A stretch of 64,000 nucleotides of DNA. Origin: Takakia lepidozioides (taxonomy: Eukaryota > Plantae > Bryophyta). Positions 5,937 through 57,046 of the stretch are shown piece by piece. The DNA lies in the NCBI GenBank assembly GCA_030704615.1, contig CM060733.1:33852001-33916000 (forward strand), given 5' to 3'. Positions within the stretch are counted from its first letter, which is position 1. Each line of letters begins with the position of its first letter. Below the pieces are notes generated by a model that was not told the DNA's origin, did not search any database, and was given only the letters and a program-made list of their open reading frames with translations. Made by a program: the position numbers and the translations under genes.

Positions 5937-5993
5937 TGTCAAGTTAAATAAACACAGTGTGAAACTAACTAGAATAAAACTAGTTATTTATAT

Positions 5994-6053
5994 TTAACAC
6001 TTGGATTTAGTTCAAGTGTTAAGTCAGGTGTCAAGTTTGAGCTTGACACCTGA
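5994..6053. repeat. Two adjacent perfect hairpins near the E1 left end
   Basis: TTAACACTTG/CAAGTGTTAA (5994-6022) and TCAGGTGTCAAG/CTTGACACCTGA (6024-6053). The second stem contains the element's terminal TGTCAAG. Confidence 0.85.
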
Positions 6054-6299
6054 ACCATCTTATCTTCACGAGAGCGTCAGTCGCGCAACTCATCTCTCTC
6101 GAGTTGAGCCTGCGCGACCGAGCTCCTTCACGCTTTAGAAGCTGAGTATGCTTATGAAGGGAGGATAGGTTGTTGTGGGGTGGAGTCCCCATAGCTTGGG
6201 GTGCCCCTGGCTCGACTACTATTTTAAAGAGTGATGGTGTTGGTTTTCATGTTTCTTGTGTGAACAGTGTGTCCTTTAACTTTCTTGTCACTCGAGAGA

Positions 6300-6621
6300 G
6301 ATGAACAAAGATATGTCAACACAGTGAAACTGAAAGATGGGCGGTCATTGTCTACAGACATTGTGGTAGTGGGCGTAGGCGCGAGACCACTCATAGCCCT
6401 TTTGAAGGAGCAGTTGGCTGTTGAGAAGAGAGGTTTCAAGGTTGATGGGTTCTTCAAAACAAGTGCTCCAGATGTCTATGCCGTTGGTGATGTTGCCACC
6501 CTCCCCCTGAAGCTGTTCGGTGACCTGCGCAGAGTAGAGTACGTTGATCATGCTTGCAAATCAGCTATTCAAGCTGTTCAGGCTATCAAGGCAGCTGAGG
6601 AAGGGAAGACTATTGCTGAAG
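6300..6621 (+). pseudogene. MDAR: Captured internal fragment of monodehydroascorbate reductase, intronless
   Basis: VKLKDGRSLSTDIVVVGVGARPL...FFKTSAPDVYAVGDVA..PLKLFGDLRRVEYVDHACKSAIQAVQAIKAAEEG matches plant MDAR. Both termini are missing and it lies inside E1. Confidence 0.9.
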
Positions 6622-7469
6622 GTAGGCTGGACCTGCTGTTTGGGTCTAAGAAGAAACACGAGGTTGATGTCCTTGACGGTCCAGGTCGGGAATGATTATC
6701 GTTGCATACCTCTCTGTTGGCAGTGGCCGCCTCTCGGTTTCACCAATGGCCACGCCAAGTTGACAGTGGAATGCTGCTGGTTTGGATTCGTGACATTCAT
6801 TTCCAGGTGACAGGCGTGAGAGAGAGAGAGAGATACAGACACATGGCTGCGCAGAGCTTGCATGCCCGTACCTCGCCTCTCCGTCTTGGGGTCGCCTGCT
6901 CCTCGCTGCTTTCATGTGATGTAAGGCTCTTGTTTCTGTCCAAAATGCGGAGAAGATGAGATTGTGGTGAAGCCTGATATATCAGATCGAGCAAATTGTG
7001 TTTGGTTTGGCCAAGAGCTTGTCTTGATAAGGCAAGACTTCAGAAAATTGTGCGCATGTGCTGGCAAAGATGGCCACTGTAGACCATGCCCAGGGGAAAG
7101 CTCTGGGTAGAACAGGCCAAGGGTCCAAATTTGAAGATACCTGTACACGTACTGAAAGTAGACCAGGCCGCCTTCAAATGGACGACTCTTTATTTGAGAA
7201 TGGTCATGCATATGACAACAGAAAGTTGCATCAACAGGGCTGTTGCCGGTGAGACAGGTGCTTGTGGAGTAGTTGTCCAGAGCCTCTGTGGGGGTGAATG
7301 TATTGGAATGGGACGATGCTGTGCTGCCTAGCTTTCCCAGTTGGGCTTCCGTTAGTTGCTGGTTCAACCACCTGCACCCAATACCAGGAACACCTCTATC
7401 AAGACTCTTGGGCGTTCAAAATTGCACTGGCAAGTTTTCTTGAGCAGCATTTGTGGGGTTCTTTCAATC

Positions 7470-7767
7470 TGTCCTCCTTTTTCTCTTCCTCCTTGGAGGC
7501 AGCTTCTATTGCAGCCCCACTTCCGGCAGCGGGTGCACTGCTCACAGCCACAGTGCCGCCACCTCCTGATCCAACATTGATGATGAGGTCATCAACACTT
7601 CTCTTCTCCAATAGCTTGGCGAACAGAGCGGGCCAGTAAGACTCAACTTGCACATTGGCGGCCTTCACTAGCGTTGCAATCTTGTCGGCAGTGATGGGAA
7701 TGTCGTCATCATGTAAAATCAGAGCAGCGTAAGTGCAGGCAAGCTCGCTGTGCGCCACGGCGGCCAT
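7470..7767 (-). pseudogene. RPP1: Captured 60S acidic ribosomal protein P1 copy, intronless, C-terminus lost
   Basis: [52 protein letters not shown]. The conserved EESDDDMGFxLFD tail is replaced by unrelated sequence after EEEKKED. Antisense within E1. Confidence 0.92.
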
Positions 7768-8271
7768 CGCTTCTCAACAAGACTCCGCACTCGAGAATCC
7801 AGACAAAGAGAATCCAGAGAGCAGGGGCTGCTAAGCGTGTGCCTGCGAAGGAGGATCCCAGCACTGCAACCTCTGTTGGTAGATTGCAATTCCACCATTT
7901 CGGGCACTTGTAGGGCATGGTATTTTTACCTTGTTGGGAACCTGCAGTAAATCGCAAAAAAAAAACGTGGGAACAGTTTTTAATGGCGAGAACGTTTTGG
8001 TGTTAAAAAAAAAAAAAACCTTTTGATCTAATTTAAATGATTTAGAGCCTAATTGGTCATAACTTTGTCAAATGGACTCCGTTTGACTCAGTTTTTGGGG
8101 GGATAGCTGCAGAAAGGGGAAATCTACCTATCTACTTATTTTTGTTTTCGGGACTCTGCTAAAAATCTATGGAATTTTTAGAGTGTGAGTGTGCCATGAA
8201 AGATCCACAATTCTGTTTCTAGAATCTGTTCTGGTCTATATGAGAGACAAATCTGTGGATGTCCTTCTTGT

Positions 8272-9021
8272 ATGGCTGGGGGAAATGAGGACGTAATTGA
8301 AGGGCATGTCTCTTCTCTTAGCCTGTGCACCCAAGGGGACAAGATTTATGTCTCTCAAGAAACTCAGACTGATTTGAGTGGAGAACAGTTGGACGAGTTG
8401 ATTGCATACTGGGAGTCAGGCATTAGCAGTAGACAACAAACTGCTGTAGTTGGCGTTGAGGGCCTCAATGTTGCTTTGGACAGTCAGAACTCTGTTGGAG
8501 CCAGCAGTTCTGCACCTGTAAGTGAAATACCAAAGTGGGTGAAAGCTAGGCTTGGAACACAGCCAAAGACAGCCCCGGGGACCAAGGTGTTCAGCCACAA
8601 GGCTGTGGTGTACTGGAGCAGAGGAGCAGGAGCTACACAAGTTTGTGCAATCAGACATGGTTGCAGCCGGACACACTCTGCACAAGGCAACCATGAGCGG
8701 GGGTTCATTAACAATGACAAGTTTGTTTTGCTTGAGGGAGATGCAGTCATTCGCAATGAGGACACCCGCAACCGTCTCAAAGCTTTCGAGTTGAGAGACT
8801 GTCAGACCCTACCTTTATTTTCTTTAGCGTTCAGTGAGCGGGAGATAGGGGAGTATTGCTTTGTCTCTACCTGGCAGAAAGAGGAGGAAGGTTGGTTAGA
8901 GCGAGCTACTGTAGCTTGGGACAAGGTTAGTGGCAGGTTTCTGGACATAGATATACCTCCTACACCTTACCATCATGCAGAGCGAGGCACTTTGAGAGAA
9001 GTCTGGCAGTTGATAGCATAG
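8272..9021 (+). CDS. Intact 249-aa orphan ORF upstream of gag in E1
   Basis: ATG-to-TAG open frame with protein-like composition. No recognised domain, and not seen in the corresponding part of E2. Confidence 0.55.
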   Translation: MAGGNEDVIEGHVSSLSLCTQGDKIYVSQETQTDLSGEQLDELIAYWESGISSRQQTAVVGVEGLNVALDSQNSVGASSSAPVSEIPKWVKARLGTQPKTAPGTKVFSHKAVVYWSRGAGATQVCAIRHGCSRTHSAQGNHERGFINNDKFVLLEGDAVIRNEDTRNRLKAFELRDCQTLPLFSLAFSEREIGEYCFVSTWQKEEEGWLERATVAWDKVSGRFLDIDIPPTPYHHAERGTLREVWQLIA

Positions 9022-9094
9022 ATCAGGATTAGATCTTGTTTGGTCGAGCTTCTATTCTTCCCCTCCATCTCTGTACTATTCTCATTACCTTGTA

Positions 9095-9500
9095 CTTGTA
9101 GTTGCCAAAGCCTCTCTTGGTGGAGGCCAGTCAGTCCGGGGTTGTGGGCTCGGATATTCTGCAGGATCAGCATTGCAGCTGGATTTTGGTGTGGGGGTGT
9201 TGATGTTTTGATTTCTTGTGTTTGGATCCCCCCCAACACCTGCATGCTTGACTGTGCGCCATGTTGGTTTTGTGTGGGCTTGCTTTCATAGGGATTAGGC
9301 CGGATTTGATCACCGGTCAATCCTAGAGTATGCTGTCGGTGGTGAGGCTGGAGTGATGACCAGCAAGACCACCAGTGTTTCTTCTATGGTGAGACTGGGT
9401 TGATGACCAGCCAACCATAGGAGTTCTTGCGGTGGATGCAGGTGCAGGTGCCCTGAGCCACTGGGATATGACCCTTAAACTGCAACAGGTGCCCACCCGT
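9095..9500 (+). promoter_or_regulatory. Conserved non-coding 5' leader shared by E1 and E2
   Basis: Homologous to the reverse complement of ~19390-19800. Core GATTTGATCACCGGTCAATCCTAGAG is identical in both, followed by a duplicated TGGTGAGRCTGG..TGATGACCA motif. Confidence 0.8.
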
Positions 9501-9569
9501 GTCACCATTAGAAATAGTACTAGAGCCTTATAGTGTCACGTGGGGGAGGTGCACATTGTGAGTGTCATC

Positions 9570-11690
9570 ATGGAGTTACCCAGGGGTTCTGAGGGGAGTA
9601 CGGCTACAGGCAGTAGCAGTGAGAGTGGGTTCACCAGAGGAGGTGTTCGTTTCAGACCACCTTCACCTCCACCCTCAACTAGTGCAGAGTCAGACACAGA
9701 CTCGGAGGCTTTATCAACAGGTGTGCAGTTTCATTCGCCATTGTTGTGGGACGACATGGAGGAGATGTATGGAGCTACCAAGGGGCCTCATAGGTACTCT
9801 GGAGCTGTGGGCACAATTGAGCTGGATGACTTTATCCAGGAGTTCGACAGCTGGTGTGATTTGCAGCAGATGCGCAATCCACAGCTGTTCACCCCATTCC
9901 TGGCGTGGAAGGGACTGTTCCAGCATTTGGAAGGCCCGCCTATGGACAATTACCACGAGTTCAGGCGAGGACATGACGCAGAGATTGAGGAGTGGAGGAT
10001 GTATTGGTCATCTGACTACGTCTTCATTACTCGAGGCACGACGTGACCAGTAGCTGCATCAGTACCAATATCTCCCACTGCCAGCACTAGTAGTGGAACA
10101 AGTACTGCCGGTACTTCTGCAGGTGATACCAGTTCAAAAGGTGCTACTACTCCTCCTGCCACGACTACAACACATGTGCCTAGATTCAACCCGGTGGTGG
10201 AGTTCTTCCAGGAGTTGCGGAGGAACTACCAAGGTGTACGGACAGAGAAGTTGCGAAGTTTGCAAGACTTCCAGCGCAAACCCAGTGAGAGCTTGCGAGA
10301 GGCCTACACTCGTATGAGGCGCTTGATAAGTGTGACCCAAGGGGTTACTGAAGCTCAGGCAATCCAGTTCTGGTATGGAATTTTGGACAAGGAGCTCAGG
10401 AGAAGGGTGCGGGATGCAACCCTGTTACAAGCAGCCCAACCCACATTAGCAGATGTGTTTCTGCTGGCTGAGCGGATTGAGCTCAACATGGTGGAGGAGC
10501 GAGTTGTTACCATTGGATTTGGCAAGGACATGCCTGTACGAGGCGCAGCTGCCAGCCCACAGGCACAAGGGACTGCCCAACAGCGTGGTCAGGGGGGCAA
10601 GGTTTCCCAACCCAAGTTCCATGGAGCTTACATGTGACCTCAGGTGCAGAGGCCCGTGGCATCTTTTGCAGGCCAACAGCAACCAGGGGTGATATGTTGG
10701 ACATGTGGAGGACCCCATGTCAAGAGAGATTGCCCAAAGAGTGGCAGAAGGCCGGCACAAGCACAGCCTGCACAGTTGCAGTGTGGGCATTGTGGCAAGT
10801 ATGGGCATGGAGATGCCCAGTGTTATCCTGAGTTGCGCCCAGACCAGTTCCAAGGGAACAATGGTGGCTGGGGGCAAGGTGGACCAGCCCAGAGAGGACG
10901 AGGTGGTCGGGCACGAGGTGCAGGCCAAGGGCAAGCTCAACATGGCCAAGGACGAGGAGGTCAGGGTGTTGACCAAGGCATGGCCAACCGGCTTCAGCAG
11001 CTAGAGCAGAGGCTCGCTGCCATGGCTACAGCTCAGGTGGTACCGGCTCCCAGGCGGGATGGTCCACCTCCTGCTCCTGAGGGAGGAGATATGGGAGGCA
11101 TGGGATTCATGTGCGGATCAGCACTACCACTAGTGCAGGTGGAGTCTGCTGCAGCTGTGACTCGAGGAGCAGCACGAGTTCCTGAGCCACGAGGTGCAGA
11201 GGTGGAATTGGATCCACGGCGTGGGAAGGCAAGCCGTCAGGCGAGGCTTCCTCAGTCATTCACATTGGCGGAGACAGTGTCGACGTCATCCATGGCACCT
11301 TGTTCTCGCCCGACTGTTACCAAGGCGGAGGTTACTATGCCCATTGGGGAGAGCTACACGTGCAGCACTGACACCTACTACCAAGGCTAGTGCAGCCGGT
11401 GTGTTATTGGGGGCAGCCACCTCTGTGTGTCAAGCCCCACTGTTCTCGGCAACCATGATTGCGACGCCGGGGGTAAGACCAGCTGTAGTGTTCAGACTAG
11501 CAGCAACACTCTGCGAGAGTGGGGAGATCACTTCATCTTCTGCGGAGTTACTGGAAGGTGTAGTGGCAGAGGGATCCTCGGATTTGAGGGTCAAGACTGC
11601 CACGACTACACCATGGCAAGCTGCAGCTGCCAGGTTGACGGAGCTGCCAGCTAGGCCAGCCTTTGAGCGCGCCATGGTGACACCTGGAGT
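9570..11690 (+). pseudogene. gag: gag with capsid-like region and two zinc knuckles
   Basis: One frame across stops at 10044 and 10635. FQRKPSESLREAYTRM (major-homology-like), CWTCGGPHVKRDC and CGHCGKYGHGDAQC. Frameshift at ~11340. Start is uncertain because E2 has ACG at the equivalent codon. Confidence 0.88.
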
Positions 11691-12130
11691 TGTCTTGTTA
11701 GACAACCAGGGAAGCATTTTCACTTTGAGTGGACCGGCAAGCAAGAAGTACCAGCCACTGCGGGTCTTGTTGGACTCAGGAGCTCAGCCACTAATGTTGG
11801 GCAGAGCTGCTATTGCAGGTTTGGGCCTCATGGAGGCGGATATGGAGCCTTGTCCTTTCCAGATATAGACATCTCTGGGAGGATCAGAGTAGGCTCGGGG
11901 CATGACACGGCGTGAGTTGGCCATTGGACTACAACCAGATCATCCTGTAGATGGCTCAGTGATGCGAGCCAAGGCCATTGTGACAGACGCGGTCTCTTAC
12001 GATGTCCTTGTTGGTGGGGCAGTGTTATATCCCATAGGCTTCACCCTGGACTTTTGGGAGGAGTCAGCATCCTACAGGCCTGGATGGTAGTCAGGGGATG
12101 GTCGTCGTGCACAGCTCCCTGTGACATTCA
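11691..12130 (+). pseudogene. Aspartic protease domain
   Basis: VLLDSGAQPLML (~11764-11799) and YDVLVG. In-frame TAG stops at 11866, 11890 and 12088. Confidence 0.85.
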
Positions 12131-12474
12131 TTGGGGGTATTGCGGCTGCCCAGCGGGGCAAGATGCCAACGTTAGCCGCCTTTACAGCTGCAGTTAGTTG
12201 GCTTGGAGAGTTGCTGGAAGGCAATGCCCATGCAGAGGATGTGCCACCTCCAGCAGAGCAGGATGACATGCATGGTACGGCGGAGTTGCCTGCCATGGTT
12301 GCTCACACTCCATTATGGGGTACGAGCAAGGATTTGCAGCATGCTACTGATGGACGGGTACAACAAGCCTGGGTAGAGGCCTTCGTACCGTCAGGAGAAG
12401 AGGAGAGTGCGGTAATTGCACCAGGACCACCTCAGTTGTCGCCATTGGACACCACACCTCTTGTGTGGCAGTCC

Positions 12475-13460
12475 CGGATGAAGGCATATGCATTCTGGAC
12501 TTGTTTGGCGGGATCAGCACTGGATTGGCTGCAGTACTGCAAGCAGGTGTACGACTTCGACGTTACCTGTATGTGGAGAGGGATGAGACTGCACGACACG
12601 TCTCACTGCGCCATGTTGCTCAGTTGGTACAGCAGTACCCTGATTTGTTGCCAGTGTCTGCAGTTCGTGGATACCAACAAGCCTTGCCAGCAGACATTTT
12701 GTTGCTGGGGGCGCAGGATTTGGAGCGGGTTGGCTCCATTGATCTGGTAGTGGCAGGTTGGCCCTGCCAAGGGCATTCATCAGCCGGGCATGGCAATGGA
12801 TTGTGAGACTCGAGGACGGGTCTGTTTTGGGAGATGGTGCGGGTTTTGCGCCACTTGCAGCTTCATCAAGCTGTATCTCCAGTATACATCTTGGAGAATG
12901 TGCCACTGATGGGCGATTCTCGGGCCAAGGTGATGGCAAGTGTGCATCAAGTCCGGTCGTGGCTTGGGTCAGCAGTGTTGCTGGATGCAGCAACAGTGCG
13001 GTCATGGGCTCATCGTCCACGGCTATGGTGGACTAACTTGATGCCACCCGCACTGCTCAAGCGTGCATTTGATGGGGTGCAGCGGCCAGCACACCTCACA
13101 GTGGATAGCATTTTGGACACAGGGAGGCAATCTCAACGTGTGAGACACGACGACCGTTTGCCATTGGCAGTGGTCAACAGGGTGGGTCAACCACGAGCAG
13201 CATTACCTACACTGCTCAGCTTCCCAGGATCCCATGCTTTTCGGGATGGTGGACCTGGCCTCTTGTGGGATAGCCAGTTGCAACAATTAGTGGAGCCCAA
13301 TGCTGACGAGCGCGAGTGGGCAATGGGTTTTACCACTGGTACCACGGCGGTGCCATCTCTTTCTGAGGCATCACGTCGTCAGGTGTTGGGGCAAGCAATG
13401 GATCTCAATTGCTTGACCTGGATTATCAGCTTGGCTATGGCTGAGCAGCGCAGAGTACGG
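12475..13460 (+). pseudogene. DNMT3-like C5 cytosine DNA methyltransferase domain within the polyprotein
   Basis: Motif I LDLFGGI (12495), II YVERD, IV DLVVAGWPCQ (catalytic Cys 12765), VI ILENV (12894), VIII AHRPRLWWTNL (13008), IX/X ERE(W/R)AMGF..T..RRQVLGQAM. One TGA at 12804 and a frameshift at ~12470. Confidence 0.95.
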
Positions 13461-13733
13461 AGTACACTTCCCTTCATGGTCTCCTTGCCTACCGAGACGG
13501 TATAGGCAGCGAGTGGGGGCGAGCAGGTGAGGACCACGAGGTGCAGGCCGCATCCATGGCACACGTGGGAGGTGCTCGAGGTTCAGAAGGAGTTGGCAGC
13601 CAAGGTGGCGGTGATGGATCAGGTTGGGGATTTTTCTCGGGTTGAGGAGATCCTCAAGGATGGGATGACGGGGCATGATGAGACATTGTCACTGACAGAG
13701 GAGGTAGTGGTCACTGCTCAAGAGGTTGCAGCA

Positions 13734-13742
13734 TAGCAACCA
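13734..13742 (+). promoter_or_regulatory. Candidate programmed stop-codon readthrough signal UAG-CAA-CCA
   Basis: Matches UAG-CAR-YYA. Identical in E2 (minus strand, 5314-5306) although the adjacent codons differ. RT continues in frame. Confidence 0.65.
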
Positions 13743-16700
13743 CGAGACGCGTCTTCTACCTCTAAGCCTGCTGGACTCAAGGTTGCAGTCACGGAGGACA
13801 ACTGCGAGCCTGATGTTGGACCTATAGTCACCAGAGAAGAGAGACGACGTATACGGCGGTTCTTGAGGGCTTACAGGAACTGCTTTGCCTTCAGTTTGAA
13901 GGACTTAGGAGCACTGAAGGGTCAAGAGATTCGCATTGAATTGGCTACTGACACGCCAATCTTTCGGAGACCCTATAGATACAGTGACATGGAGAGGTCC
14001 TTGATTCAGATGAGAACTCAGGACCTTTGGGAGGCTGGTTTGGTGGAGCTATCTGGGGGAGAGTATGCTTCAGCCACAGTGATGCCAGCCAAGAAGGATG
14101 TCTATGGCAATTGGACGGAGAGACGTATGTGCGGTGATTACCGGCCTGTAAATCGTCAGACCAAGTCCGATAGGTATGCCATGCCGACACCAGAGGAGAT
14201 CTTTGATGCCATTGGGCATGCCAAAGTCTTTAGCACGTTGGATTTACGATCCGGATATCACCAGTTGCCGATCAAAGAGGCGGATAAGCAAAAGACGGCG
14301 TTCTGGGGGATCAATGAGCACAGGAAGGATTGTCTATACCAGTGGATTGTCTTACCATTTGGACTTAAAAAAATGCTCCTGTGTTATGGTGGAGGAGCAT
14401 GAGAGACACCTTCAGGTGGTATTTGAGCGCTTGAGGGCGCACGGATTGAAGTTACATCCGGGAAAGTGCAAGTTTTTCCACAACCAGATTGAGTATCTGG
14501 GTCACATGATATATCCTGGAGGATTGGGGGTACAGCACACTAAGGTAGAGTCCATTGCACAGATTCCACGCCCCACGGATGTGAGCCGAGTTCGAGCTTT
14601 CATGGGGTTAACAAACTATTATAGACGGTTTGTTAAGGGATTTAGTGCCATTGCAAAAGCTCTAACCAAGCTGACCAAGGTGGACCAGGAGTGGCAGTGG
14701 GAAGATGAGCAAGAACAAGCTTTTCAAGAGCTCAAGGCAAGGTTGACCTTGGCGCCCATCTTGAGACGACCTATCAGGGGGCGTCCTTTTCAGCTGCATA
14801 CAGATTGGAGCATGTTGGGGCTTGGAGCGGTGCTCACACATGTGGATGATGAGGGAAGAGAGTTCGTAGTGGCTTATGCTAGCCGCTCGAACAACGCGGC
14901 AGAGTCTAAGTATAGCTCATATGAAGGAGAATGCTTAGCTGCAGTGTGGGCCATGGCACACTTCAGGTGCTATCTATACGGCAATCTCTTCACCCTTGTC
15001 ACGGATCACCAACCACTCAAGTGGTTGATGGAGTCAAACAAGCTTACGGGGAAGCTTGCACGGTGGGCACTCATCCTTCAAGAGTATGACTTTCAGGTTG
15101 TGCATCGACCGGGTTTGGTCAATCGCAATGCAGATGGGTTGAGGCGCAATCCATGCACGAGCCAGCAGGATGACACTGGAGCTTGGTGGCATGGTGAGAC
15201 GGACGAGGAGATGGTGCCCGGATGGCATGCATCTGCATTTCTGTGTATCTTGGCAGCGGAAGGCCAGGTTGGACCTGCAACAGGGATGATTGTAGATCAA
15301 GTGTCTGAGGACCCTGAGGCCAGCAATGAGCAAGGTGGCGCCAAAGATATACATGAGGATTCAGCTGTGTTGGACTATCTTCGCACTGGAGACACGGCAG
15401 CCACTGTGACTGCCAATGAGAGGGATCGGATCCTACAACGAGCCAAGAGGTTCAAGTGGGAGGGGACACACCTGCTCAGAATGTGGGAGGATGGTCGAGT
15501 GAGGATTATGCCTCACCCAACACAGCGGGCACGGTTAGTGCGGCATGCCCATGAGGAGTTGGGGCATTTTGGGGTGCGACGCACTCATAGTCTACTGCAA
15601 GGGCAGTATTGGTGGCGTGGTATGCACACAGAGGTGCAACAATTTGTGGCTAGGTGCATGGTGTGTGACAGGGTGCGTGCTTCATTCAATGCCCCTACTC
15701 CACAATTGCACCCTCTTCCGATCATGGGATTGGGCTACAGGTGGAGTCTTGACTTCGCGGGGCCGTTGCCACTGACCATGCACAACAACAAGTACGTGTT
15801 GGTGATGGTGGAGCACTTCTCCAAGTGGATCGAGTTGGTTCCGTTGTCTGATAAGGCTAGTGAGGGAGCTGCGTATGCATTCTTGGATTGTGTACTTAGC
15901 CGCTTTGGTGCTCTAGCTGAGGTACTCACGGACCAAGGGAGAGAGTTCTTGGGGGAGTTTCAGGCTTTGCGTGATAAGGCCTTGATAGACCACCGCACCA
16001 CTTCTCGGGATCATCCTGAGGCCGATGGCTTGGCAGAGAGAGTTGTTCAGACAGTAAAGAGGGGTTTGAGCAAGTATGGCTTGCAGAAGGGACACCTAGG
16101 AGATTGGGACCTTCAGTTACCCTGGTTAGCCATGGGCTACAGGTTCAGCAAGGAAGCATCACTTGCCTCCTTCTCACCATACTTTCTTCTCTTTGGCCGA
16201 GAGCCGGATTTGCCTACATCCATTCGTAGAGAAGCTGCTACAGTTCTTAACCTCGACGATCCGGACATGTGGGCACGTGCATGTAATCAGCGTGCAGAGT
16301 TGTTCAAGAAAGTCATGCCCATGGCTTTCGAGAACCTTGCCATTGCACAACATCGTGATACGTTGAGGTATGCTACCATACGTGGTGGAGGCTATCGTCC
16401 TGGGGTTCGGAGATTCAATCCTGGTGACTATGTCTATCTGCAGCAGACTGCTCCTACGACCTTGGATGTGACTGCAGGACGTGTTATTTTGAGGGTTCGA
16501 GAGGTCTTGCCCTCAGGCGTCTTGATCTTGGAGGGTCGGGATGGCATAACTTGGAAGGACCATGTGCGTAATTGTGCGCCATGTCACCTTCCAAATGTCG
16601 ATGGCAGGATTGACCCAAACTTGACAGTGGTACCTACAGGCTTGAGGTGCATGTTGTGTGGGTCTGCTAGAGGGGCAGCCACCATGCTAGTATGTGATCG

Positions 16701-16791
16701 ATGCTCTAGAGGTTGGCATATGGGATGCTTGATCCCACCTCTTGAGATGGTTCCTGATGGGGATTGGTTATGTCCGCATTGCATTGAATAG
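13737..16791 (+). pseudogene. pol: pol: RT (YIDD segment deleted at ~14375), RNase H, integrase (HHCC, DDE), C-terminal PHD finger
   Basis: PYRYS, MCGDYRPVN, LDLRSGYHQ, PFGLK; LHTDWS, YASR, TDHQPL; HEELGH..CMVC; SLDFAG, TDQG, GLAER. PHD CMLC..CDRC..WHMGCL.PPL..VP.GDWLCPHC at 16648-16782. Frame is open from ~14390 to 16791. Confidence 0.95.
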
Positions 16792-17040
16792 TGGGAGTGG
16801 ATGCAACCATGGGAGGCTAACAAGAAATGTAAGGCCAAGCTACTAGGAGACCTTGAACACACGAGATTCTGGCTCAAGTTCACAGATTGCAAGATGACGA
16901 CTAACGATGGGGCTACTCTTGTACCCGGCCTCTTGGTCTCTAGAGTTTGAGTACAACAGGGACAGTGATAGAGGACTTAGTACGGTTGTGGCTATTACAT
17001 CTTGTAGCTATCTGGAGTTAGAGGGACCTATCCACCAGCT

Positions 17041-17136
17041 AGGGGGGCGATTGTGACAGACTACTTTATTGTGCATATATGTGTGGTGTGGTTTGGACAG
17101 CGATGTAGTTGTGTAGCGATATGTATGCGCACGACA
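17041..17136 (+). other. Polypurine tract plus 85-bp terminal segment (TGTG...GACA)
   Basis: AGGGGGGCGAT at 17041-17051, then TG at 17052. The segment is homologous to E2 3535-3619 and both lose similarity at GCACGACA. Confidence 0.8.
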
Positions 17137-19800
17137 CCCCACTCGATTGACCACCGCCAAAGGTGGACGATCATCATGTCGCATTCTCTGTGGTTGCCTC
17201 CCTTGGTCCAAAATGCCTCAACCGTGAGGTTGGGTGGTCGTTGAATGGAATCATAGGCTCTCTTGAGCAGCTCTAGTGGTGCAAGATTGGTCCACCACAA
17301 TCGAGGTCGATGCGCGCGTGACCACCGCTGCTGCATCCAATAGCACCACCAATCCAATCCAAGACCGCACCTGATGCATACTGGCCATAACCCTGGCCCG
17401 ATTATCTCCTATAAGAGGAACATTCTCCAAAATATAGCCTAGAGGTTGCACTTGCCTCGTCTGCAAGTCCCGCAATGCTCGCAACAAGCTGCACCTTGCT
17501 TTACAGCACCACCCACTGGCATTTCCCGAGCCATACCAACTCTCCCCAATGACACTTATGGCTCTGCCTTTGACACACTTGGGCGAGCGGGTGCCATCGA
17601 TGGCGTAGTTGGCACTGTCTCAACCAATGTAAAGAACTGTGGAAGCCTTGTCTGACAACTTGCTTCCCCCCTTTGTGGATCAAAACCCACATCCGCTCCT
17701 CTTGGCTCAGGAGCACTCATTGCTGCTCGAGTGACAGCAGCAGTAGAGTCTAATACATGCAATGGTCCTACAAGTGCGGCTCCCCACATGAAGCCCATAC
17801 CAATCTGGTCTTCCCTAGGCATATAAGGTTGTGCAGGTGGGGCCTGAACCTCAGGCCTTGGAGCTGGCGCAACATGAGTAGTGGCCATGGCAGCAAGACG
17901 TTGCTCTAGTTGGGCAAGTCTATTCACCATGCTTTGATCATGACCTTGATCCTGACCCTGTACTCCTTGGTCTGGGTTACGACCTCCACCACGACCTCTA
18001 CCTCCTCTCTGGACTACATTGCCTCGTCATCGGCCACCATTGTTCCTTTGGAGCAGGCCTTGCCGTAGCTCATGATGCAAGCCATAACAATGGGCCTTCT
18101 CATGCCCATACTTTCCACAATGCCCACACTGTAGTTGTGTAGGCTGTGCCTGTGCCGGCCCTTTGCCTCTCTCCGGGCAATCCTTCTTGAAATGGGGTCC
18201 TCCACAATCCCAACAAGTCACACCCGATTGTTGTTGGCCTGAGAATGAAGGAAGAGACCTCTGCATCTGAGATCCTCTCTGTCCTTCCCTCGGCTTCACC
18301 TGAGCCCCCTTGTTGCCTTGAACACGTTGGGATAGTGGTTGTTGTTGGCTAGGAGCCCCACTTCGTTGTGTCTCCTTGCCAAACCCCACCATAACCACTC
18401 GCTCCTCCACCATATTGAGCTCTATCTGCTCTGCCAGCAAAAACACATTTGCTAAGGTGGGTTGGTCCACTTGTAGGAGAGTTGCATCTCGCACCCTTCT
18501 TCTTAGCTCCTTGTCCAGGATCCCATACCAGAACTGGACTGCCTGAACTTCTGTAACCCTTTGGGTTACGTTTATCAAGCGTTTCATGCGAGTGTAAGCC
18601 TCCCTCAAACTCTCAGTAGGCTTGCGCTGGAACTCTTGTAAGCTCCGTAATTTCTCCGTCCTTATCCCCTGATAGTTTCTTCTCAACTCCTCGAAGAACT
18701 CCACAACTGGGTTAAAGGCAGGCACGGGTACTAGCGCTGCAGCAGGAGCTTGAGTGGATTTCCCAGCTCCACCTTTACTTGTCCCAATACTACTGCTTGC
18801 AGTTAGGGATGTTGGTGTAGCTGTTAGTGTCGCCGCTGCCCTTGTGCCTCTAGTGATGGAGATATAGTCAGGTGACCAATACTGTCATCACTCCTCAATC
18901 TCCACCTCATTTCCCCGCCTAAACTCATGGTAGTCATCCATAGGCGGCCCTTCAAGGTGCTGAAACAGCCCCTTCCACGCCATAAAAGGCGTAAACAGTT
19001 GTGGATTGTGCATTTGCTACAAATCACACCAACTATCAAACTCCTGTATGAAATCATCAAGCTCGATGGTGCCCACAGCTCCAGAGTACCGACGTGGCCC
19101 CTTTGTAGCTCCATACATTTCCTCCATCGTATCCCACAACAATGGTACGGAAATGGCTTGCACCCTCGACGAGAATCCTCCTGACTCCGAGTCTGAACTT
19201 TCCTCAGAAGACACTTAAGGTGAAGGTGGCCTAAACCACACACCTCGTCTTGTGTACCCACTAGTATCGCTGGTGCTCGTACCGGCACTCCCCTCAGCAA
19301 CTGGTGGCACCTCCGTGATGAAAACTCACAACCCAACCGGTTGTCAACCTGTCTCTAATCCCCACTTTCTACAAGGTAACCGGGTAGAGAACCTGTTGCG
19401 GCCTATGGCTTAGACTAGTACTATGTTCGTAACATAAACCTGCACCTGCACCTGCATCCACCGTAAGCACTCCTATGGTCTGCTGGTCATCAACCCAGCC
19501 TCACCATAAGATAACAATGATGGTCTGATTGGTCATCACCCCAGCCTCACCACCGACAGCACGCTCTAGGATTGACCGGTGATCAAATCTGGACCAACCT
19601 CCTATGAAAACAAACGCCCACACAAAGCTAACATGGCGCACAGTCAAACATGCAGGTATGGAGGGGATCCAAACACAAGAAAATCAAGACAGTAACTTCC
19701 CCACACCAAAAACACTCCACAGTGTCGCTCCTGCAATGACACCCCAGCCCAAACCCAGACTGACTCTTGCCTCCACCTATGGAAAGGTTTTGGCCTATGG
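17137..19800 (-). mobile_element. E2 5' half: leader, gag, internal deletion of PR and DNMT motifs I-V, then DNMT motifs VI-VIII
   Basis: gag ORFs 19017-19214, 18027-18725 (two zinc knuckles) and 17556-17930. Junction at ~17490 into YILENVPL and RAHRPRLWWTNL. Ends at the E1 insertion. Confidence 0.93.
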
Positions 19801-21526
19801 AGATGGTGAAAGACTATGGAGAAGAGAAACTAAAGCAATTCCTAACCCCAGAATGCTCTCATCCCACCACTCTCCCTCCTGTCTCTATCCACTCGCTTGT
19901 ATGGTCGTGGCAAGTATCCTTCAAATATCCCTCAATCAATCCTTCAAGAGCTCTTCAACATTGTCCACCAAAGCTCTTCGAAGGGTCCTCCAATACTCCT
20001 CCAAGGACCCCAAAGATCCTCCAAACACTCCTCCAAGGGCCCTCAAATATCTTCCAAACAATCCTCCGAAGGCCCTTAAATTTCACTAAGTCCTTTCAAT
20101 GTGGATACCTTAACAGAGGTATAGTTTGAGGTTGATAGGGTCCCTCATGTTGATGATATCTTTACAGAGGTATAGTCTGAAAATGAGGGTTCTGTTTGGT
20201 ATACTAACAGAGGTATAGTCTGAGCTGATTAGGGTCCACATATGGTGATACCTCAACAGAGGTATAGTCAAAGGGACAAGCTCCTGTTTGATATACTAAC
20301 AGAGGTATAGTCTGAGCATACACTACTAGGGTTTGTAACGAAGAGCTAGAATGCAAGTCCTTGACTTCTATGCTTCTACTCAAGCAAAAATATGGTCTCT
20401 AGGTGGTCATAAGAGACATCTTCTTGCTCTCTTCCACCCCAATGTGCAACCAAGAGTGGTCCAACTCAACTTGCAAGTCATTGTCCACCAAATCAATCCC
20501 CCTTCTAGTCCTTGGGATTTGATTGCAAACTACCATATCTCCATTGCCGAGCAATCATGCATTTGTTTCCTCATCACTTGACAATTGCTCCAAATCAACA
20601 CAAATTATCTCAATGTGTAGGAGCAATGCTTGTCACTTATAATAATGCTCCCAAGCAATCCGCCTTGGATCCCACTCTCACGCCATATGCCTCATTTGGG
20701 GTCTTGCACCGATCCATCATCCATGTGCTCCCCTTGGTCATTTGAATGCATGTTCCATGACCTCTTGGCCTATGTGTTGCTCTCCTTCATCATAACATGA
20801 ATCAACGCCTCTTCACTTCACACACAAATGGATCTCAAGGCCTTCACCTCTTGCTAGTTCAAGAGCTCCCCTTCTCAAACTTGAACTTACAAACTCAAGA
20901 GAGCATGTTCCACATATGCACCACTTACTTGGTCAACTATCCACCACAAAGCTCGCACGACCAAGAGCATGAATAACCAAGTATTGCCTCCCCCTTTTGT
21001 CACATAACATAGTTAGGGTGAAGCTATGCATACATTGAATGATGATTTCCCTTCAAGGATTTTCCACCATATGTTCTCCAAGCCCTTCCAAATGGCGCCC
21101 TAAACTTGGCTCCACACCACCATGATTGGAAGATTTCTTCATATGCTCCCTTTCAAAACCTCTTGAGCTTCTTAGTGCTCTCCAAGTGCTTGCCCTTGTT
21201 GTCTTCAAGCCCAAGTATATGTAGCTCCTTGGCTTCTCTTCCACAACATCCACACTTTCAACTTGCTTAACCCTAGCTTGACAGTAAAATGAGCACTAAC
21301 AAGCCTTTAGTCACTCTCCACAAGCCATGGCACACACCATTGACTCCATAATGCATACAAAGGATTCTCAAACCCTAGAATCCATGCTTCCACACACACA
21401 AGACTTCCTCCTTGCAATCCTTGCAAAATCTTGTGACTCAAGAGCTTTATTCTCAAGCTCTCCAACTCCTTGGTGCATGCAACACTCGAACACCTTTCAG
21501 CAACCCCTTGCAAGCCTTGTGATACA
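19801..21526. repeat. LTR-like non-coding repeat DNA, probably the 5' region of E2; right boundary unresolved (21283 or ~21526)
   Basis: Strand-biased, repeat-rich, no convincing coding frame. Includes short CTCC/TCCAA repeats (19980-20070) and the array at 20104-20316. Confidence 0.45.
20104..20316. repeat. Five copies of ACAGAGGTATAGT in a dimeric tandem array
   Basis: Copies start at 20113, 20164, 20207, 20256 and 20299 (spacing 51/43/49/43). Alternate spacers resemble each other. Confidence 0.9.
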
Positions 21527-22448
21527 AGAGCTAAATTCTCCTAGCTCGGTGGATGTGGTTGTGGGTTCAAACCACGGTCTGGTGTGTCATGAAGGTGTCC
21601 ACCTTTCAGCTGGAAGGCGGTGGTGAAGAGACACCATAATTTACGCTCCCTCGGGGAGGCGTCTATATATATATATATATCCGCTAAGTACATGATATAC
21701 ATCCAGTCACTCACACAAAGGAAACCCAAGGGCCGCCCCAATTTTACAAGTTACTTCTCAATCCAAGTACCATCGTTGCATTGACCACAATTTCCATTCC
21801 AACTGCCATTTCTGACTAGGCACTGCATATGATCATGCAAATGTTTCTACTATCTGAAAGGCGGCTTCCGTATCAATCAGGCCTGAATTCCACACCTAGG
21901 CACCAACTGACAACCTCAGTGAATGCATGCTGGCTTTACCCTATTCCACCCGCAATGAGCAGACATACCCATCCAATACACTTGCAGTGCACAGCCCAAC
22001 TGGGCAAAAAATGACAGAGCTGCCCTCAGTATGTGCAAAGCAATACAGTCTAGGAAATCAAGCACAGCCAAGGGCTACTCATCTTGCGATGCTACTCCTA
22101 ACTTACAAGCCTTCAGCAGATGTGCACACTACGAGTACAGAGTTGGCTGTGCGTAAGCCCTGGTGAATACTTAATGGAGCTGGCACTGATCCTGGTCCTT
22201 CCCGGTCTAAAGCAGAGCTAATTCCTTGTCCTACAATACAGCAAAAGTGGCGGCGTTACAGACCCTCATAACTCGGTTACTCCAGACCATGATTTGCTAG
22301 CCAATATGGGCCGGGAAGAAATTTTGAAAGATGCCGCAAAGTTGTTGTTGTAATCCTCCAACCAATATGAGGTGGAAAATTCAGATTGGTGAAACACTTG
22401 AGTGTAAAGTTTTTGGTTGAAGGGTTACAATACCCAAATGTCTATATA

Positions 22449-25400
22449 TTACAGACTGGACTGCAACATCCGGACTCTCCCCATGTGTCCCTCATTAGTG
22501 CTATCACACTCTGTCAAAGATGGCCACCCTCTCCACCCATCTGCAAGTAGATCTCTCCTTCCATGGTAATTTATTTCCGTACTACTTGGGCCGCGAGTCA
22601 CATTAGCATCACCAACTACACCCCCTAACACATGGCCAGAATTGACATTATCTTCTGTATTTGTCCCTCCAGCATTTGATGAAGCACTGACAATGCCACC
22701 AAGATCTGGAGGGCTTGGATCTATCCTTTCCTCAAAATACATTTCACCACAACATGGGCTAAGAGTCACACCACCATCACCAACTACATCCCCTGGCGTA
22801 CGTCCAGATCCGCCAGTCCTGTCGTTGTTACTCTGTCTATTTGTCCCTCCAGAACTTGATGAAGCGCTGACAATGCCACCAAAAACTGCACGGCTTCCGT
22901 TCGGAGCATTTGAAGAACCGGCCCTCGGCAGTCTGCTTTGAACCTCAGGGTGGGAGGCAAGATATGCAAGGGACTGGACCCAAGGAACTATAATAGGCTT
23001 TCGCACATAGTCAGTACTGCCAGCTACTATGTCGAACGCATCCTCTAGTGCTGTGGTCCGAGCTGGTGAGGGGAGACTAAGAACAAGCATGGCCACTTCC
23101 TTCAGTAGTTCTGGAAGTACCTGTTTGCAATACACAAATGCAATATCTTTCAGCAACATTCCACCATGATCAACAATAAAAAATCTTCAAGCACAAACAC
23201 TACAATATCAGGATCCCTCATACCTTTAAGTCCACGCGCAAAATCAAGTGCAGTAACAGCAACTGAATGTTCTGGGCATCTCCAGATTTGTCTACGCCTT
23301 TGTGGGCCTTCTTAAGGTTCTGCTTGGTTAGGTCCCCGGGTTCAGAACCCATTGAATGGAGCGTTCTTGCTTTGTCTACCAGGCGGCTTATGCAGTAAAC
23401 CGTTGCAGGGCTACCAGGAGGCAGATGATGAGTGATTGCTCCAACACCGTAGACCAGCCCCTCAAATGGAGTTGTGCCTGGAAATGTCTGCACTGCCAAA
23501 TATCCAGCACAAACCAACAAACAATAAAGCTTCCATTTCTTCCCTGAGTGAGTCCCATAAGTAAGGGCTTTAAAGTTCACAGGAAGCACAAAGAGCTCAT
23601 GGCACAAGCACGCAAAAGCAAACAGAGAAGACAACAAAAAAGAGAGATTTTGAGAGACAAGTGAGAACCTCCAGTGATTGGTCAATGTAGTAGACAGAAA
23701 GCTGCTCCCTTATTGTTGTCTCTGGACCTTCTTTGGACTCCTCTGCAAGATTGGGATGCCGCTGATATGAAGATTCATCGGTGTTGCTGAGAGAAAGAAA
23801 AGAGGTAAACAAAGCATGTGCAGCCCGAGCAACTGTCTTCAATGGATGCTGGAGAAATCTTCAGATATCTCTGTCAGGAACTCCAACTCAACAAAGCTGC
23901 ACTATCTAATTGCATTCTTTTACAGGCCTGAATCCGACTGGGGTTGATGCTACTCCAAAACTGCTAGCGGCCCACCCTTGAAACAATATCGGGCTCTCAA
24001 CTCTTAAACTGGTAATGACAGAAATGAAAAATCTGGTAAAAGTGCAGTATCTTGTTTGTCATGTCAATCCTCCGAGACCCAAAGAACTATCTTTGTCTAC
24101 GAACTATTTCTGTAATGGTATAATGTCATCAATTTTCTAGAGAGGAGAGCAAGTGCTGCATTCCCCACACTCACATCATTCTCTGAATGTGTAACTATAG
24201 CAAGTTTTTCTGATCATGCATGCCTAACATATTACAAAACAAACAGTCTGCCAAGCTTGATTCAACCAGCTTCTGCATGATAACATCTCCATATGCAAAG
24301 CATGGAAAGGATACAAAAACATAGTAGGTGCCACTTCATTTGCAAATGTCAATTCAGGTAACTTTCCCAGACAAGAAGGCAGCACTCGAAGGTAGAAAGA
24401 GAGGCGTGAGGTCTGAACTTCATCTCGACTCCATTCATAGCCTACCATATTGTTCAGATCTGAAGGACCTGCAAAGAAACTTGGCACATTGCACGTTCAG
24501 TCTAACTCTAAAAGATGTAAGTACACCACATCGTTCAGGGGAACTGTGATGATCCACTTATGGACAGATCAAGATCCTGACACAGTTTCATCAGGTGCGA
24601 TCACCACTTTTACTCTGCCAGCTCAATAACCACAATACAACAAATCGGTGTTGAAGAGTAACCTGAGCTTACGTGCACATTCGGTCATAGTCAAAGTATG
24701 ATACATGATTGACCTCCCACACAAACCACAATAGACCCCAAGTAGAATAGACTTCCAGATTTTTGCTCTCTGAATAAAGTGACTAGAGGAATTACCTGGC
24801 CAATGAACAATGGAGCTATAAGGGGGTAAGAACCGTACAAGCACCAGAATGCCCGACCGGTTCACGGAGACAGAAGAAACAGCTCGCTGCACTAGAGCCC
24901 CATACTCTTGCATGTTCAGATGTCGGCAAAACTCAACACATGAAAGAGAGTCCAATGCTCGAGCTGCTATCTCTGCACCAAGCCCATCCATCTCCTGAGC
25001 TGCTTCTGCCCTTAATGACACCGCCCCTGGCAGATGTCCTTCTCCAATGGCACGGGAGAAGAACATCACCACTGTCATAAATGCAGACACAAGGACTTCA
25101 TCCAATGCCTGAGTGCTAATCGACTGATTTCCAGCTATAGACTTGGGACTCTCATGCCCATGTCCAGTTGCTTCTTGCAAAGGTCTGCCTGACAGCACAC
25201 TGAAAAGACGATGGCCTCTGTAGAGATCCTGTGTATACTCCCAGATACTTATTTCTGCATGGCGCTGCATGTTTCCATCGCCAAAAGCATATTGTTCACA
25301 CATGGCCCGTGCTATGGCCCCCACTTCTTGAAATAATGGGCCTCCTACATGCAAATTCATCTGCTCCAAAGCAGCACCTAATTTGCTACCTTGGCCAGGC

Positions 25401-27254
25401 TCACCAGGCTGTTTCACGTCCTTTATACCCCTCTGGTGTTCCATCAATTGTGCATAATAAACACCTCTCAACGAAAGGGCATCGCACAGTAAGGTGGTAA
25501 GCAAGCATTGCAGGATAGAAGGGTGTGGAGGGAGCCCTCTACAGCGTCCTACTGCTAACCCAATACATTGCAGCTTGTGTTGCAACCCAGGGGAAACAGT
25601 ATCAGCAGCTTCAAAGGTCATAACCAATCCATGGTCACTTTCCCCGTGAGCTATATGTTTTCTGCTCTGTTCTAGGTGCGCAGCAGCACAATCACAAACC
25701 CTAACCACCACTCCTTCAAGGGACCTCATAATGCTTAGCCACTTGTCTTCCAAAGGGCCAGAAGGCCTGTTATTTTGGGTGCCACCTTCCATGTACAAGC
25801 CTCGTCGAAGTCCTGCTGCTCCAAAGAGAGCTGCACATTGAGTGGCAGGCTTTGATACATCCATGGCCCCCTGCAATAGCTCCTTCACCATAACTGTGGC
25901 ATCTGCGCCATGTCTCTGAGAAGAGAAGGCTAAGCCTTGGTATTCCATTAGATGAAAAAGCATCAAGCCATGTCTCAAACATGGCCATTCGGTTTCTCTC
26001 CCTGGACTGACTCCATCAAAATTTCTCAGATTCCGTTCCCTTTCCATATTTGGAGATGGGATTGCATGGCTATGAATTGCATGTATTTCCTCCACAGAAA
26101 CTCTGCCTGGATGGCTGTTCCCTGACTCACCTCTACAGCTACGTGAAAGTGTAGAGGACAGGTGTGGATGAGCCAAGGCTGATGATAAAGTAGGCTCGCC
26201 AGTACTAGAAGCCGGGGTCCACAGAGAAAGCAAAGCTTGGAGAATTGAGGAACATTTCAAAGCATCAGCAACAGTCAAAGCATAACCTGCACCAGCAAGT
26301 GCATTGGCAAGACTTCCTTTCACAATCAAATCCTTGCGACCAACCAGCTCGCATATTATAACTTCTTGGCACTTTTGTCTCAGAACTTCCAAGCCTTGTG
26401 CAGCTGTACAGACTGTCCCAAGCAGGAGGAGTGCTTCGCAGATGAAATGATCTGAGACAAGGGGATCTTCCAGCGAACGGCAAATGCTTGCCACCACTAG
26501 ACTCAACGTTTCGCGGGCTTGCTGCGATGCGCTTGAAGAGCCAATTACAAAGGTTTTGTGAACCCATGAAGTCAAAATAAGGGCCACAGAGACACGGGCC
26601 TGTCCTAGAGCTTGTATGTCCTCGCATTTAACTGTTGAAATGAGGGCGAGGAGAAGCTTGGCTTGCGCCTCTGCCACATGGAGATACCTGCGATGTTGAC
26701 AAATCTCCAAGAGAGCTTCAGCATGCTGAGGCTCGAGCACTCCCTGCTGCACGCAAGTGCGTAGCTGAGACCATATCTGCACAAGAAGGGTCAATTCCCA
26801 AGTAAAACGAGTGAGCAGATTTTACACTGTTTCAAGTCCCAAGAAGGGAAATTATACTAGGAATCACACTACGCTGACAGCTTGCTGGGGCTCTACGCAC
26901 ACATTGAGAAAAATATTTTCAAAGAGTGTTTGTCACTCTGCTGGATGGAAAAGGGGTTTACCGCTACCGCTGAAACCAGCGCAACAGAACCTCAGTCATG
27001 GTTGGGTAAATGACGATATTCTGGGCACAATTTGAGTCCTGCAAGACGTGGTTTGCTGTAGCATAGCAACAAAGATTGCCAAATTACGCTGAATCAACTT
27101 GGACAATCACCGAAATTGCACTAACCTGTGCAATCTGCCTTGCTACTAGCCCAGGAGTTGCCGATAGTGAGGTCCCTGGCGCTGGTGGGGCAGCAGTCGA
27201 CGAAGGTGGCAAAGAGGCAGCAACCAGCCAGTCTTCCAGGAATTGAACATCCAT
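22449..27254 (-). CDS. Conserved uncharacterised plant protein (At1g73970-like), 6 exons
   Basis: Exons ~27254-27126, 26776-24796, 24468-24315, 23858-23669, ~23505-23225, ~23121-22449. Motifs FLEDWL, SRLSFYLRV, VAPTMFL, YPG/FPG.TPFEG, DYVRKP.IV.W.QSL.YL. Confidence 0.8.
23859..24314 (-). other. U12-type (minor spliceosome) GT-AG intron
   Basis: Donor GTATCCTTT; branch-like TTCCTGAC ~14 nt before AG; no polypyrimidine tract. Splicing restores PTMFL-FLQHPL. Confidence 0.8.
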
Positions 27255-57043: not shown

Positions 57044-57046
57044 CTG

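Follow-up and report, generated by a model that had tools for sequence, protein, structure and literature searches.

A PHD finger at the integrase end and a DNMT3-like domain recur together in a Ty3 retrotransposon family of green algae and bryophytes

PHD fingers and DNA methyltransferases (DNMTs) have each already been published as components of Ty3 elements. The closest described system is KnitGypsy-Dnmt3 of Klebsormidium nitens, a Gypsy element with a DNMT3 in Pol and DIRS-like repeats (PMC5890265). PHDs have been called widespread in retrotransposons (PMC6673714, 10.1101/2021.11.30.470311, PMC8557442) and are reported from a Ginger transposase (PMC2836005); among Ty3/gypsy elements, Gypsy-7a_cRei and other Chlamydomonas elements have a Gag-Pol with a PHD, for which an intergenic bias was observed and a role in minimising harmful insertions proposed (PMC9940879). 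Chromoviruses end their Ty3 integrase with a chromatin reader (PMC6673714, 10.1101/2021.11.30.470311), and EpiLTRs combine a reader and DNA methyltransferase writers in one long terminal repeat (LTR) element (10.64898/2026.05.21.726589). Here, we describe E1, a Ty3 element that carries both an integrase-terminal PHD finger and a DNMT3-like domain, in a 64,000-nucleotide stretch of the moss Takakia lepidozioides (GenBank assembly GCA_030704615.1, contig CM060733.1, positions 33,852,001–33,916,000), henceforth the window; an earlier note, made from the same DNA alone, had drawn attention to the finger. The domain order of E1 is gag, protease, DNMT, reverse transcriptase (RT), RNase H, integrase, and PHD, with the following positions in the window:

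5937–17136, forward strand: whole element E1 (A repeat, leader, gag-pol, polypurine tract, B repeat), ends TGT...ACA
5933–5936 and 17137–17140: 4-bp target duplication of E1, CCCC on both sides
9534–12090, forward strand: zinc-knuckle gag plus protease (LLDSGA motif), broken by stops (Retrotrans_gag, E 5.6e-4)
12474–13460, forward strand: DNMT3-like C5 cytosine methyltransferase domain, motifs I, IV (PC), VI (ENV), and VIII (RxR)
13860–14511, forward strand: RT, broken (PF00078 in two frames)
14698–15087, forward strand: RNase H (PF17917, E 3.6e-35)
15517–16038, forward strand: integrase H2C2 zinc domain and DDE core (PF17921, PF00665), catalytic D534, D594, and E629 present
16429–16581, forward strand: beta-barrel integrase C-terminal domain, SH3/Tudor-like by its five predicted strands, with a conserved xxPCH motif at its end
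16648–16782, forward strand: PHD finger (C4HC3), last domain of Pol (PF00628, PDB sequence matches, model and fold search)

The canonical C4HC3 PHD recognised in the earlier note lies exactly at 16648–16782 and has all eight zinc ligands; it matches Pfam PF00628 with 40 bits (cut-off 24, E 4e-10), and the pattern is not due to chance. The in-frame fusion to a DDE integrase was borne out as well, the PHD being the last domain of a stop-free frame of 879 codons (14152–16791) that holds the end of the RT, RNase H, H2C2, the rve core, and the finger, which is followed by two residues and the stop at 16789–16791. In a predicted AlphaFold model built on a 60-row alignment, pLDDT is about 90 across the finger, and the predicted cross-brace fold superposes on the PHDs of BAZ2A, DPF3, and MOZ with a root mean square deviation (rmsd) of 1.0–1.4 Å. 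Upstream of the finger, the xxPCH motif is present in 119 of 148 PHD-bearing proteins compared with 2 of 10 PHD-less ones. A tandem Tudor-PHD reader of the PHF1/UHRF1 type was also considered; the best fold matches are indeed Tudor plus PHD proteins, but the pair superposes with an rmsd of 12–15 Å and the barrel, judged by eye, has no evident aromatic cage, and this candidate was rejected. The PHD does occupy the position at which chromoviruses have their chromodomain, as the earlier note had remarked, and we found no chromodomain match in E1 by Pfam or among the Pfam annotations of 194 listed relative proteins.

By its domain order and split terminal repeats, E1 belongs with KnitGypsy-Dnmt3. 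Both have an intronless DNMT3-like domain in a Ty3 Pol and a DIRS-like repeat arrangement, pieces of E1 are 44–56% identical to the Klebsormidium protein P0083, Klebsormidium proteins fall in the clade of E1, and Klebsormidium KFL_015960010 has the same integrase–PHD end. The text and searched supplements of PMC5890265 do not mention the PHD, which its Fig. 4c may draw, and that paper reports the element from Klebsormidium only, whereas the family described here reaches a moss, liverworts, and green algae and has a second domain order. The protease of E1 is assigned from the LLDSGA motif and a weak Pfam match in the relative L034. The DNMT domain matches PF00145 weakly (E 0.0026) and is 49–51% identical to the intact domain of L034, whose best PDB matches are DNMT3A/B/C; with its motifs present and the domain broken it is a predicted methyltransferase, and PMC5890265 did not demonstrate activity for the Klebsormidium enzyme. 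E1 is a dead copy, a point absent from the earlier note: there are nine in-frame stops upstream of the RT and two frameshifts, the DNMT domain is broken by a frameshift near 12473 and a stop at 12804, and, compared with the open frame of L034, a frameshifting deletion has removed about 33 codons of the RT including YIDD.

Differences from the other described systems are larger. According to the legend in PMC9940879, which lists no DNMT, Gypsy-7a_cRei has the order RT, RNase H, PHD, and integrase; this order matches a separate branch of 10 proteins in our tree and not E1. E1 has no chromodomain, and its PHD, whose pocket is for Ala1/Arg2, would recognise a part of H3 other than the one read by chromoviruses; chromodomain targeting has been demonstrated (PMC6673714, 10.1101/2021.11.30.470311), whereas PHD targeting is here proposed from sequence. 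EpiLTRs combine a chromodomain with DAM and a DNMT4-related domain, and their authors set them apart from streptophyte Gypsy-DNMT3 elements (10.64898/2026.05.21.726589).

To determine how widely the pair occurs, relatives were collected in three ways. A search with the integrase end including the PHD, which is biased towards PHDs, gave 74 proteins, among them Marchantia Mp_7g09570 and matches in Calypogeia, Klebsormidium, and Haematococcus. A PHD-free query found 270 among longer proteins, and the counts given here cover the 120 listed of these 270: by profiles, 99 have both DNMT and PHD, 11 DNMT only, 4 PHD only, and 6 neither (PHD in 103/120), and several of the DNMT-only relatives stop short of the PHD position. 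Among 80 metagenome loci, for which one of six search patterns was derived from the PHD, the finger is present in 64, missing in 2, and beyond the end of 14 that are too short (64 of the 66 long enough); the DNMT precedes the RT in 35 of these loci, 43 are too short, and 2 were scored as DNMT-less, one of which is a match to a neighbouring element. This is the family survey that the earlier note had suggested, and the PHD proves to be family-wide, not confined to the E1 copy. The DNMT occupies one of two places: before the RT in 14 of the 120, the layout of E1, Klebsormidium, Closterium, and also Tetstr1 models, or between RNase H and integrase in 85 of the 120, including Pleodorina, Tetrabaena, and many others. 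The PHD follows the integrase in every DNMT-bearing layout. Relatives occur in liverworts and green algae, and by these profile counts the combination of PHD and DNMT is a conserved trait of a large algal and bryophyte family.

In a tree of RNase H and integrase (235 proteins, 283 columns, rooted on another Ty3 protein, with 33 of the 268 usable rows omitted as multi-element chimeras), 197 of the 235 proteins form one clade (local support 0.80), and a clade of 44 groups E1 with Klebsormidium P0083 and P0089 (FastTree local support 0.905, which is moderate). Several separate branches keep the PHD and have no DNMT match, and some of these proteins begin at the RT. For the PHD, the ratio of nonsynonymous to synonymous substitution rates (dN/dS) is 0.06–0.11 between L034 and L038, L036, and L044, and 0.19 between E1 and 45 loci; these values are rough, with about 34 synonymous sites per pair, and the ratio for the integrase core of E1 is saturated. 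Judged by these ratios, the PHD of the family is under purifying selection. A PHD that is only a passenger without current function would be in keeping with E1 itself being dead and with one subclade living without the finger, but dN/dS is far below 1 and the PHD has been retained from green algae to bryophytes, so that this view is largely refuted for the family and has a very slim chance of being correct.

Several members are unusual in their make-up. Marchantia P0001 (Mp_7g09570) is annotated as a host protein and is built from pieces of the family DNMT, the integrase end, and the PHD; it would be a domesticated copy or one that has been modelled wrongly. In P0096, a degenerate insert resembling a methyltransferase lies between RNase H and integrase; it was seen by eye and missed by the DNMT profile. 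In a neighbouring Ty3 branch (P0185, P0283, P0287, P0297, P0298, P0311, P0312, P0315, P0316), the PHD lies between RNase H and integrase, as in Gypsy-7a_cRei, and there is no DNMT match. Many members with the algal layout (P0126 at 1640–1993, P0140, and relatives) continue for 200–600 residues past the PHD; these extensions have a DPFxGxG-like motif in 32 of 107 and in 4 also an SPPF motif, resembling amino-methyltransferases, some have a Tudor-like stretch, Pfam is silent on them, and the atlas lead is weak (0.87). The extension is possibly a second writer.

As to what the finger does, we see about an even chance that it ties the integration complex to nucleosomes by way of the H3 tip while the DNMT acts in parallel. 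The protease would release an integrase–PHD protein separate from the DNMT, and the PHD borne by this integrase would hold the complex to the free H3 tip (Ala1-Arg2). In the subclade of E1, binding would be weak per finger and aided by integrase multimers; it would be loosely sensitive to K4 methylation, as in UHRF1, so that insertion would be mildly biased away from H3K4me3 promoters without homing to heterochromatin, and algal members with acidic residues would be stricter readers of unmethylated K4 (K4me0). The DNMT would act on the cDNA or the new copy and would not need the PHD, as proposed in PMC5890265.

The best PDB sequence matches of the PHD are CHD4, KDM5B PHD1, KDM5A PHD1, PHF12, ATXR5, Lid, and BHC80, and, in line with the earlier note, the closest solved relatives by both sequence and fold are readers of unmodified H3. 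Among the 193 fingers that were parsed (58 from the E1 subclade and 135 others), the tryptophan of the K4me3 cage, which we take to lie two residues before the His, occurs in none (0/193), and E1 has a Gly at this position; an invariant aromatic-cage Trp marks PHDs that read H3K4me3 (PMC3241642). E1 shares with the PHDs of KDM5A/B (PHD1), ATXR5, BAZ2A, and UHRF1 the fold and the Leu, Asp, Pro, Gly, and Trp for H3 Ala1/Arg2 (PMC4225485, PMC5499861, PMC5415848, PMC3214078). In KDM5B numbering, for which the 55-residue construct was assumed to start at 306 and which reproduces L324-D328 of the paper, the residues retained are L325, D328, P347, G349, and W351, which hold Ala1 and Arg2 (PMC4225485). 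This pocket (Leu, Asp after Cys3, and P-x-G-x-W) is complete in E1, is kept in 58, 56, 51, and 55 of the 58 subclade members, and is acidic at the D328 position in 56 of the 58. The UHRF1 PHD is anchored on Arg2 and pays only a 3-fold penalty for K4me3 (PMC3214078). Because the pocket is kept and the cage and acidic contacts are absent, the sequence favours a weak H3-tip reader of loose or, less probably, strict K4 selectivity.

Several observations weigh against such tethering. What E1 lacks compared with the PHDs of KDM5A/B, ATXR5, BAZ2A, and UHRF1 is an Asp at the N-terminus, the acidic patch ahead of the first strand, and a second Asp for Arg2; KDM5B D308, E321, and D322 have no equivalents in it. 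The four-cysteine finger that precedes the PHD in UHRF1 is missing as well. D308 contacts Lys4 and E321 contacts Thr3 (PMC4225485), and an acidic wall has been described for BAZ2A (PMC5415848). In KDM5B and UHRF1, losing a single acidic contact weakens binding 6- to 12-fold, and in BAZ2A a double loss does so 17-fold (PMC4225485, PMC3214078, PMC5415848); H3 binding could therefore be gone in E1. The acidic patch is present in 0 of 58 members of the E1 subclade and in 103 of 135 others, and an acidic residue just before the first Cys, absent in E1, in 9 of 58 and 88 of 135, respectively; across the 58 members, the missing patch is by descent one evolutionary loss, not 58, and the Ala1/Arg2 pocket outlasted it. 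The ATXR5 PHD excludes methyl-K4 through backbone carbonyls, without acidic side chains (PMC5499861), which favours a stricter reading. The net charge of the PHD averages +3 over E1 and 43 loci compared with −5 in the algal layout (E1's own is 0), and a positive mean would also fit DNA binding. Finally, a Closterium-type branch of six has lost the PHD and kept the DNMT and the remainder; the PHD is therefore dispensable in that branch.

These observations bear on two alternatives. In the first, the finger of the bryophyte subclade has ceased to read histones and is instead a basic DNA-binding or structural component within the integration complex. The acidic H3 contacts are gone and the mean charge has turned positive, and the xxPCH motif accompanies the PHD, which hints that barrel and PHD pack as one unit; however, the residues of the Ala1/Arg2 pocket are retained in 51–58 of 58 members, the finger of E1 has a net charge of 0, and the model gives no confident packing of barrel and PHD (pTM 0.49). 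We regard this as quite unlikely. The second is the proposal of the earlier note, in which a finger strictly specific for H3K4me0 directs integration into silent, H3K4-unmethylated chromatin in the manner of chromovirus chromodomains. Its premise that such fingers see unmodified H3 agrees with the nearest solved PHDs and with the missing K4me3 Trp (0/193), ATXR5 bars methyl-K4 by backbone carbonyls alone (PMC5499861), and 103 of 135 members outside the E1 subclade retain the acidic patch. Strict K4me0 selection is unsupported because the E1 subclade is without the acidic Lys4 contacts of KDM5B and BAZ2A (patch 0/58, acid before the first Cys 9/58).

Insertion sites bear on this second alternative as well. 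The earlier note had cited as fitting such targeting that E1 sits inside another element, E2, and that E2 sits inside a long interspersed nuclear element (LINE); the corresponding features are

3535–19800, reverse strand: E2, an internally deleted element of the family of E1, split by E1 into 3535–5936 and 17137–about 19800 (5' end approximate)
3–3534, reverse strand: LINE fragment (endonuclease and RT; PF03372, PF00078) adjoining the 3' end of E2 at 3535

The nesting of E1 in E2 is secured by the CCCC duplication and by three contigs of DNA run X1 that have the empty site, with the joint 5932 to 17137. In self-alignment (70–84% identity), E1 splits the DNMT region of E2, whose integrase core and PHD are deleted; a 5' end of E2 at 21283 was rejected, as high-copy contigs cross this position. 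Nesting of E2 in the LINE did not hold up. The 3' end of E2 abuts the LINE fragment, but no matching duplication was found from 17138 to the end of the window and no LINE remainder beyond E2 by tblastx or Pfam, and this level is therefore unverified. High-copy repeat DNA extends to 21663 and is followed by single-copy host DNA, in which the putative last exon of a host gene ends near 21916, about 0.25 kb from the repeat block. As one event next to a gene, with no background rate, the nesting is no test of targeting. Around relatives, Ty3 coding sequence lies within 5 kb in 5 of 27 distinct 3' flanks, a count without a background rate, and the 27 distinct flank sites gave no target-site consensus. 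In favour of the milder tether, insertion of a PHD-bearing Chlamydomonas Ty3 element between genes was 2.6 times that expected by chance (PMC9940879). The strict K4me0 reader can point to the insertion of E1 into another element, but the window contains several genes, one of them next to the repeat block, and only 5 of the 27 flanks have Ty3 coding sequence nearby; taken together, we consider it unlikely.

The earlier note had also likened the pairing of PHD and methyltransferase to animal DNMT3. The ADD domain of animal DNMT3 consists of a GATA-like finger and a PHD-like finger beside the catalytic domain, whereas the one canonical PHD of E1 lies 3.2 kb away from the DNMT, and no ADD chain is among the best 60 PDB matches of the PHD. 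The analogy is weak because the PHD stays on the integrase, the DNMT shifts position, and each has been lost without the other. A functional coupling of this kind, in which the PHD guides or activates the DNMT3 of the element and methylation is thereby placed where the chromatin at the insertion site has unmethylated H3K4, would nonetheless be consistent with the presence of both domains in 99 of the 120 listed relatives and with the DNMT directly before the integrase in 85, which could place it in one mature protein with the PHD. In addition, the Klebsormidium DNMT on its own showed no activity in yeast, a result its authors call inconclusive (PMC5890265), and the ATXR5 PHD tunes its own catalytic domain (PMC5499861). 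Against this, the co-occurrence reflects shared ancestry within one clade, a single loss of the PHD left the DNMT in place, several PHD-bearing branches are missing the DNMT (although for proteins that start at the RT it may lie further upstream), no DNMT match accompanies the PHD of another lineage, and in the layout of E1, the RT, RNase H, and integrase separate the two domains. We consider coupling decidedly improbable.

The ends of E1 and its relatives point to an uncommon integration route. In place of an ordinary LTR pair, none of which was found around E1 or E2, there are two different terminal repeats:

5937–6290, forward strand: 5' terminal repeat A
17041–17136, forward strand: polypurine tract (17041–17049) and 3' terminal repeat B, common to the 3' end of E2 and related loci

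Complete relatives have the repeats as A-coding-B-A-B, complete in L003 (1679–10805), L016, and L073, or as A-coding-B, the short form found in E1, for which the B-A junction is seen in other copies of its genome. Past 17136, 56 contigs run into two bases and then sequence like the 5' end of E1 (agreement 0.45), and there is one A-to-B joint (6285 to 17050). Matched 4-bp duplications flank seven relative loci, with both forms, and were imperfect or absent by eye in four others with both ends. These features suggest a DDE-integrase element that would integrate by cutting an internal or circle junction. As separate observations, split repeats were noted in L003, L016, L073, L011, L042, L057, and L074, the polypurine tract precedes B, and the B-to-A join is CA, two bases, and TG, which resembles an integrase attachment junction.

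Between repeat A and gag, the leader of E1 holds foreign sequence:

6292–8070, strand not assigned: low-copy host mRNA fragments (Pfam PF07992, PF00428; depth drop, matches to parts of longer contigs)

The PF00428 fragment is a 60S acidic ribosomal protein, the PF07992 fragment is presumably monodehydroascorbate reductase-like, and there are others besides; they are intronless, several, in both orientations, and low in copy, and would be a chimeric gene capture by the E1 copy or a small subfamily. A 273-codon frame at 8200–9021 of the leader is high-copy in the DNA run, with no match in Pfam or among the 80 loci. Summed contig depth is 0.93 million in the PHD bin, 1.07–1.08 million in the integrase bins, and 66 in single-copy DNA, which is not a copy number and is read as "high copy" only; E1-like contigs also occur in two runs guessed to be RNA, which says nothing about expression. 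The CpG ratio of E1 (0.47) is no lower than that of host exons (0.33–0.65) and is therefore uninformative about the DNMT.

Elsewhere in the window, 19800–21663 is a high-copy repeat with strong CpG and CHG depletion (0.22, 0.30), tandem units at 20100–20320, a TA-run end, and no Pfam match. Host genes (an unnamed protein, a violaxanthin de-epoxidase domain, a BPG2-like GTPase, and an ankyrin repeat) and a second LINE remnant lie at 22449–26821, 36712–37833, 39378–41273, 46102–46560, and 55451–57132, and a 160-bp inverted repeat containing runs of G/C and A/T at 62096–62255. The best named matches of the BPG2-like GTPase come from Ceratodon and Sphagnum and rank above those from liverworts, ferns, and seed plants, as would be expected of a moss. 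No tRNA genes were found in the window.

In the literature, a 2025 survey cites DNMT3 retrotransposons for streptophytes and dinoflagellates only (PMC12344493), and a 2019 opinion paper speaks of DNMT-carrying retrotransposons as absent from "land plants, such as tracheophytes" (PMC6338049). Our literature search found no integrase-terminal PHD described as a trait of Gypsy-DNMT3 elements, no bryophyte members, no green-algal reach, and no account of the change of reader surface in bryophyte PHDs, although the first three could be found in figures, in Repbase, or in closed supplements. In its widest form, the family would be a Ty3 clade of ancient origin in the green lineage, spanning chlorophytes, mosses, and liverworts, that has rebuilt the logic of animal de novo methylation out of separate components: the integrase PHD would sense the unmodified H3 tail, a co-packaged DNMT3 would methylate the insertion and its flanks, integration would proceed by cutting an internal repeat junction in place of normal LTR ends, and the reader would have been retuned in bryophytes. 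We think it improbable that this whole scheme is correct.

Gypsy-DNMT3 is widened here from a single-species curiosity to a broad clade with a fixed integrase reader, and DNMT-carrying retrotransposons are placed in land plants. The clade is a natural experiment in itself, with PHDs that are acidic in algae, de-acidified in bryophytes, and missing from one branch, and chromatin maps of Marchantia, which has the member Mp_7g09570, make the targeting idea testable there. If the PHD is shown to direct integration, it would join the chromodomain as a second means of choosing sites by reading histones.

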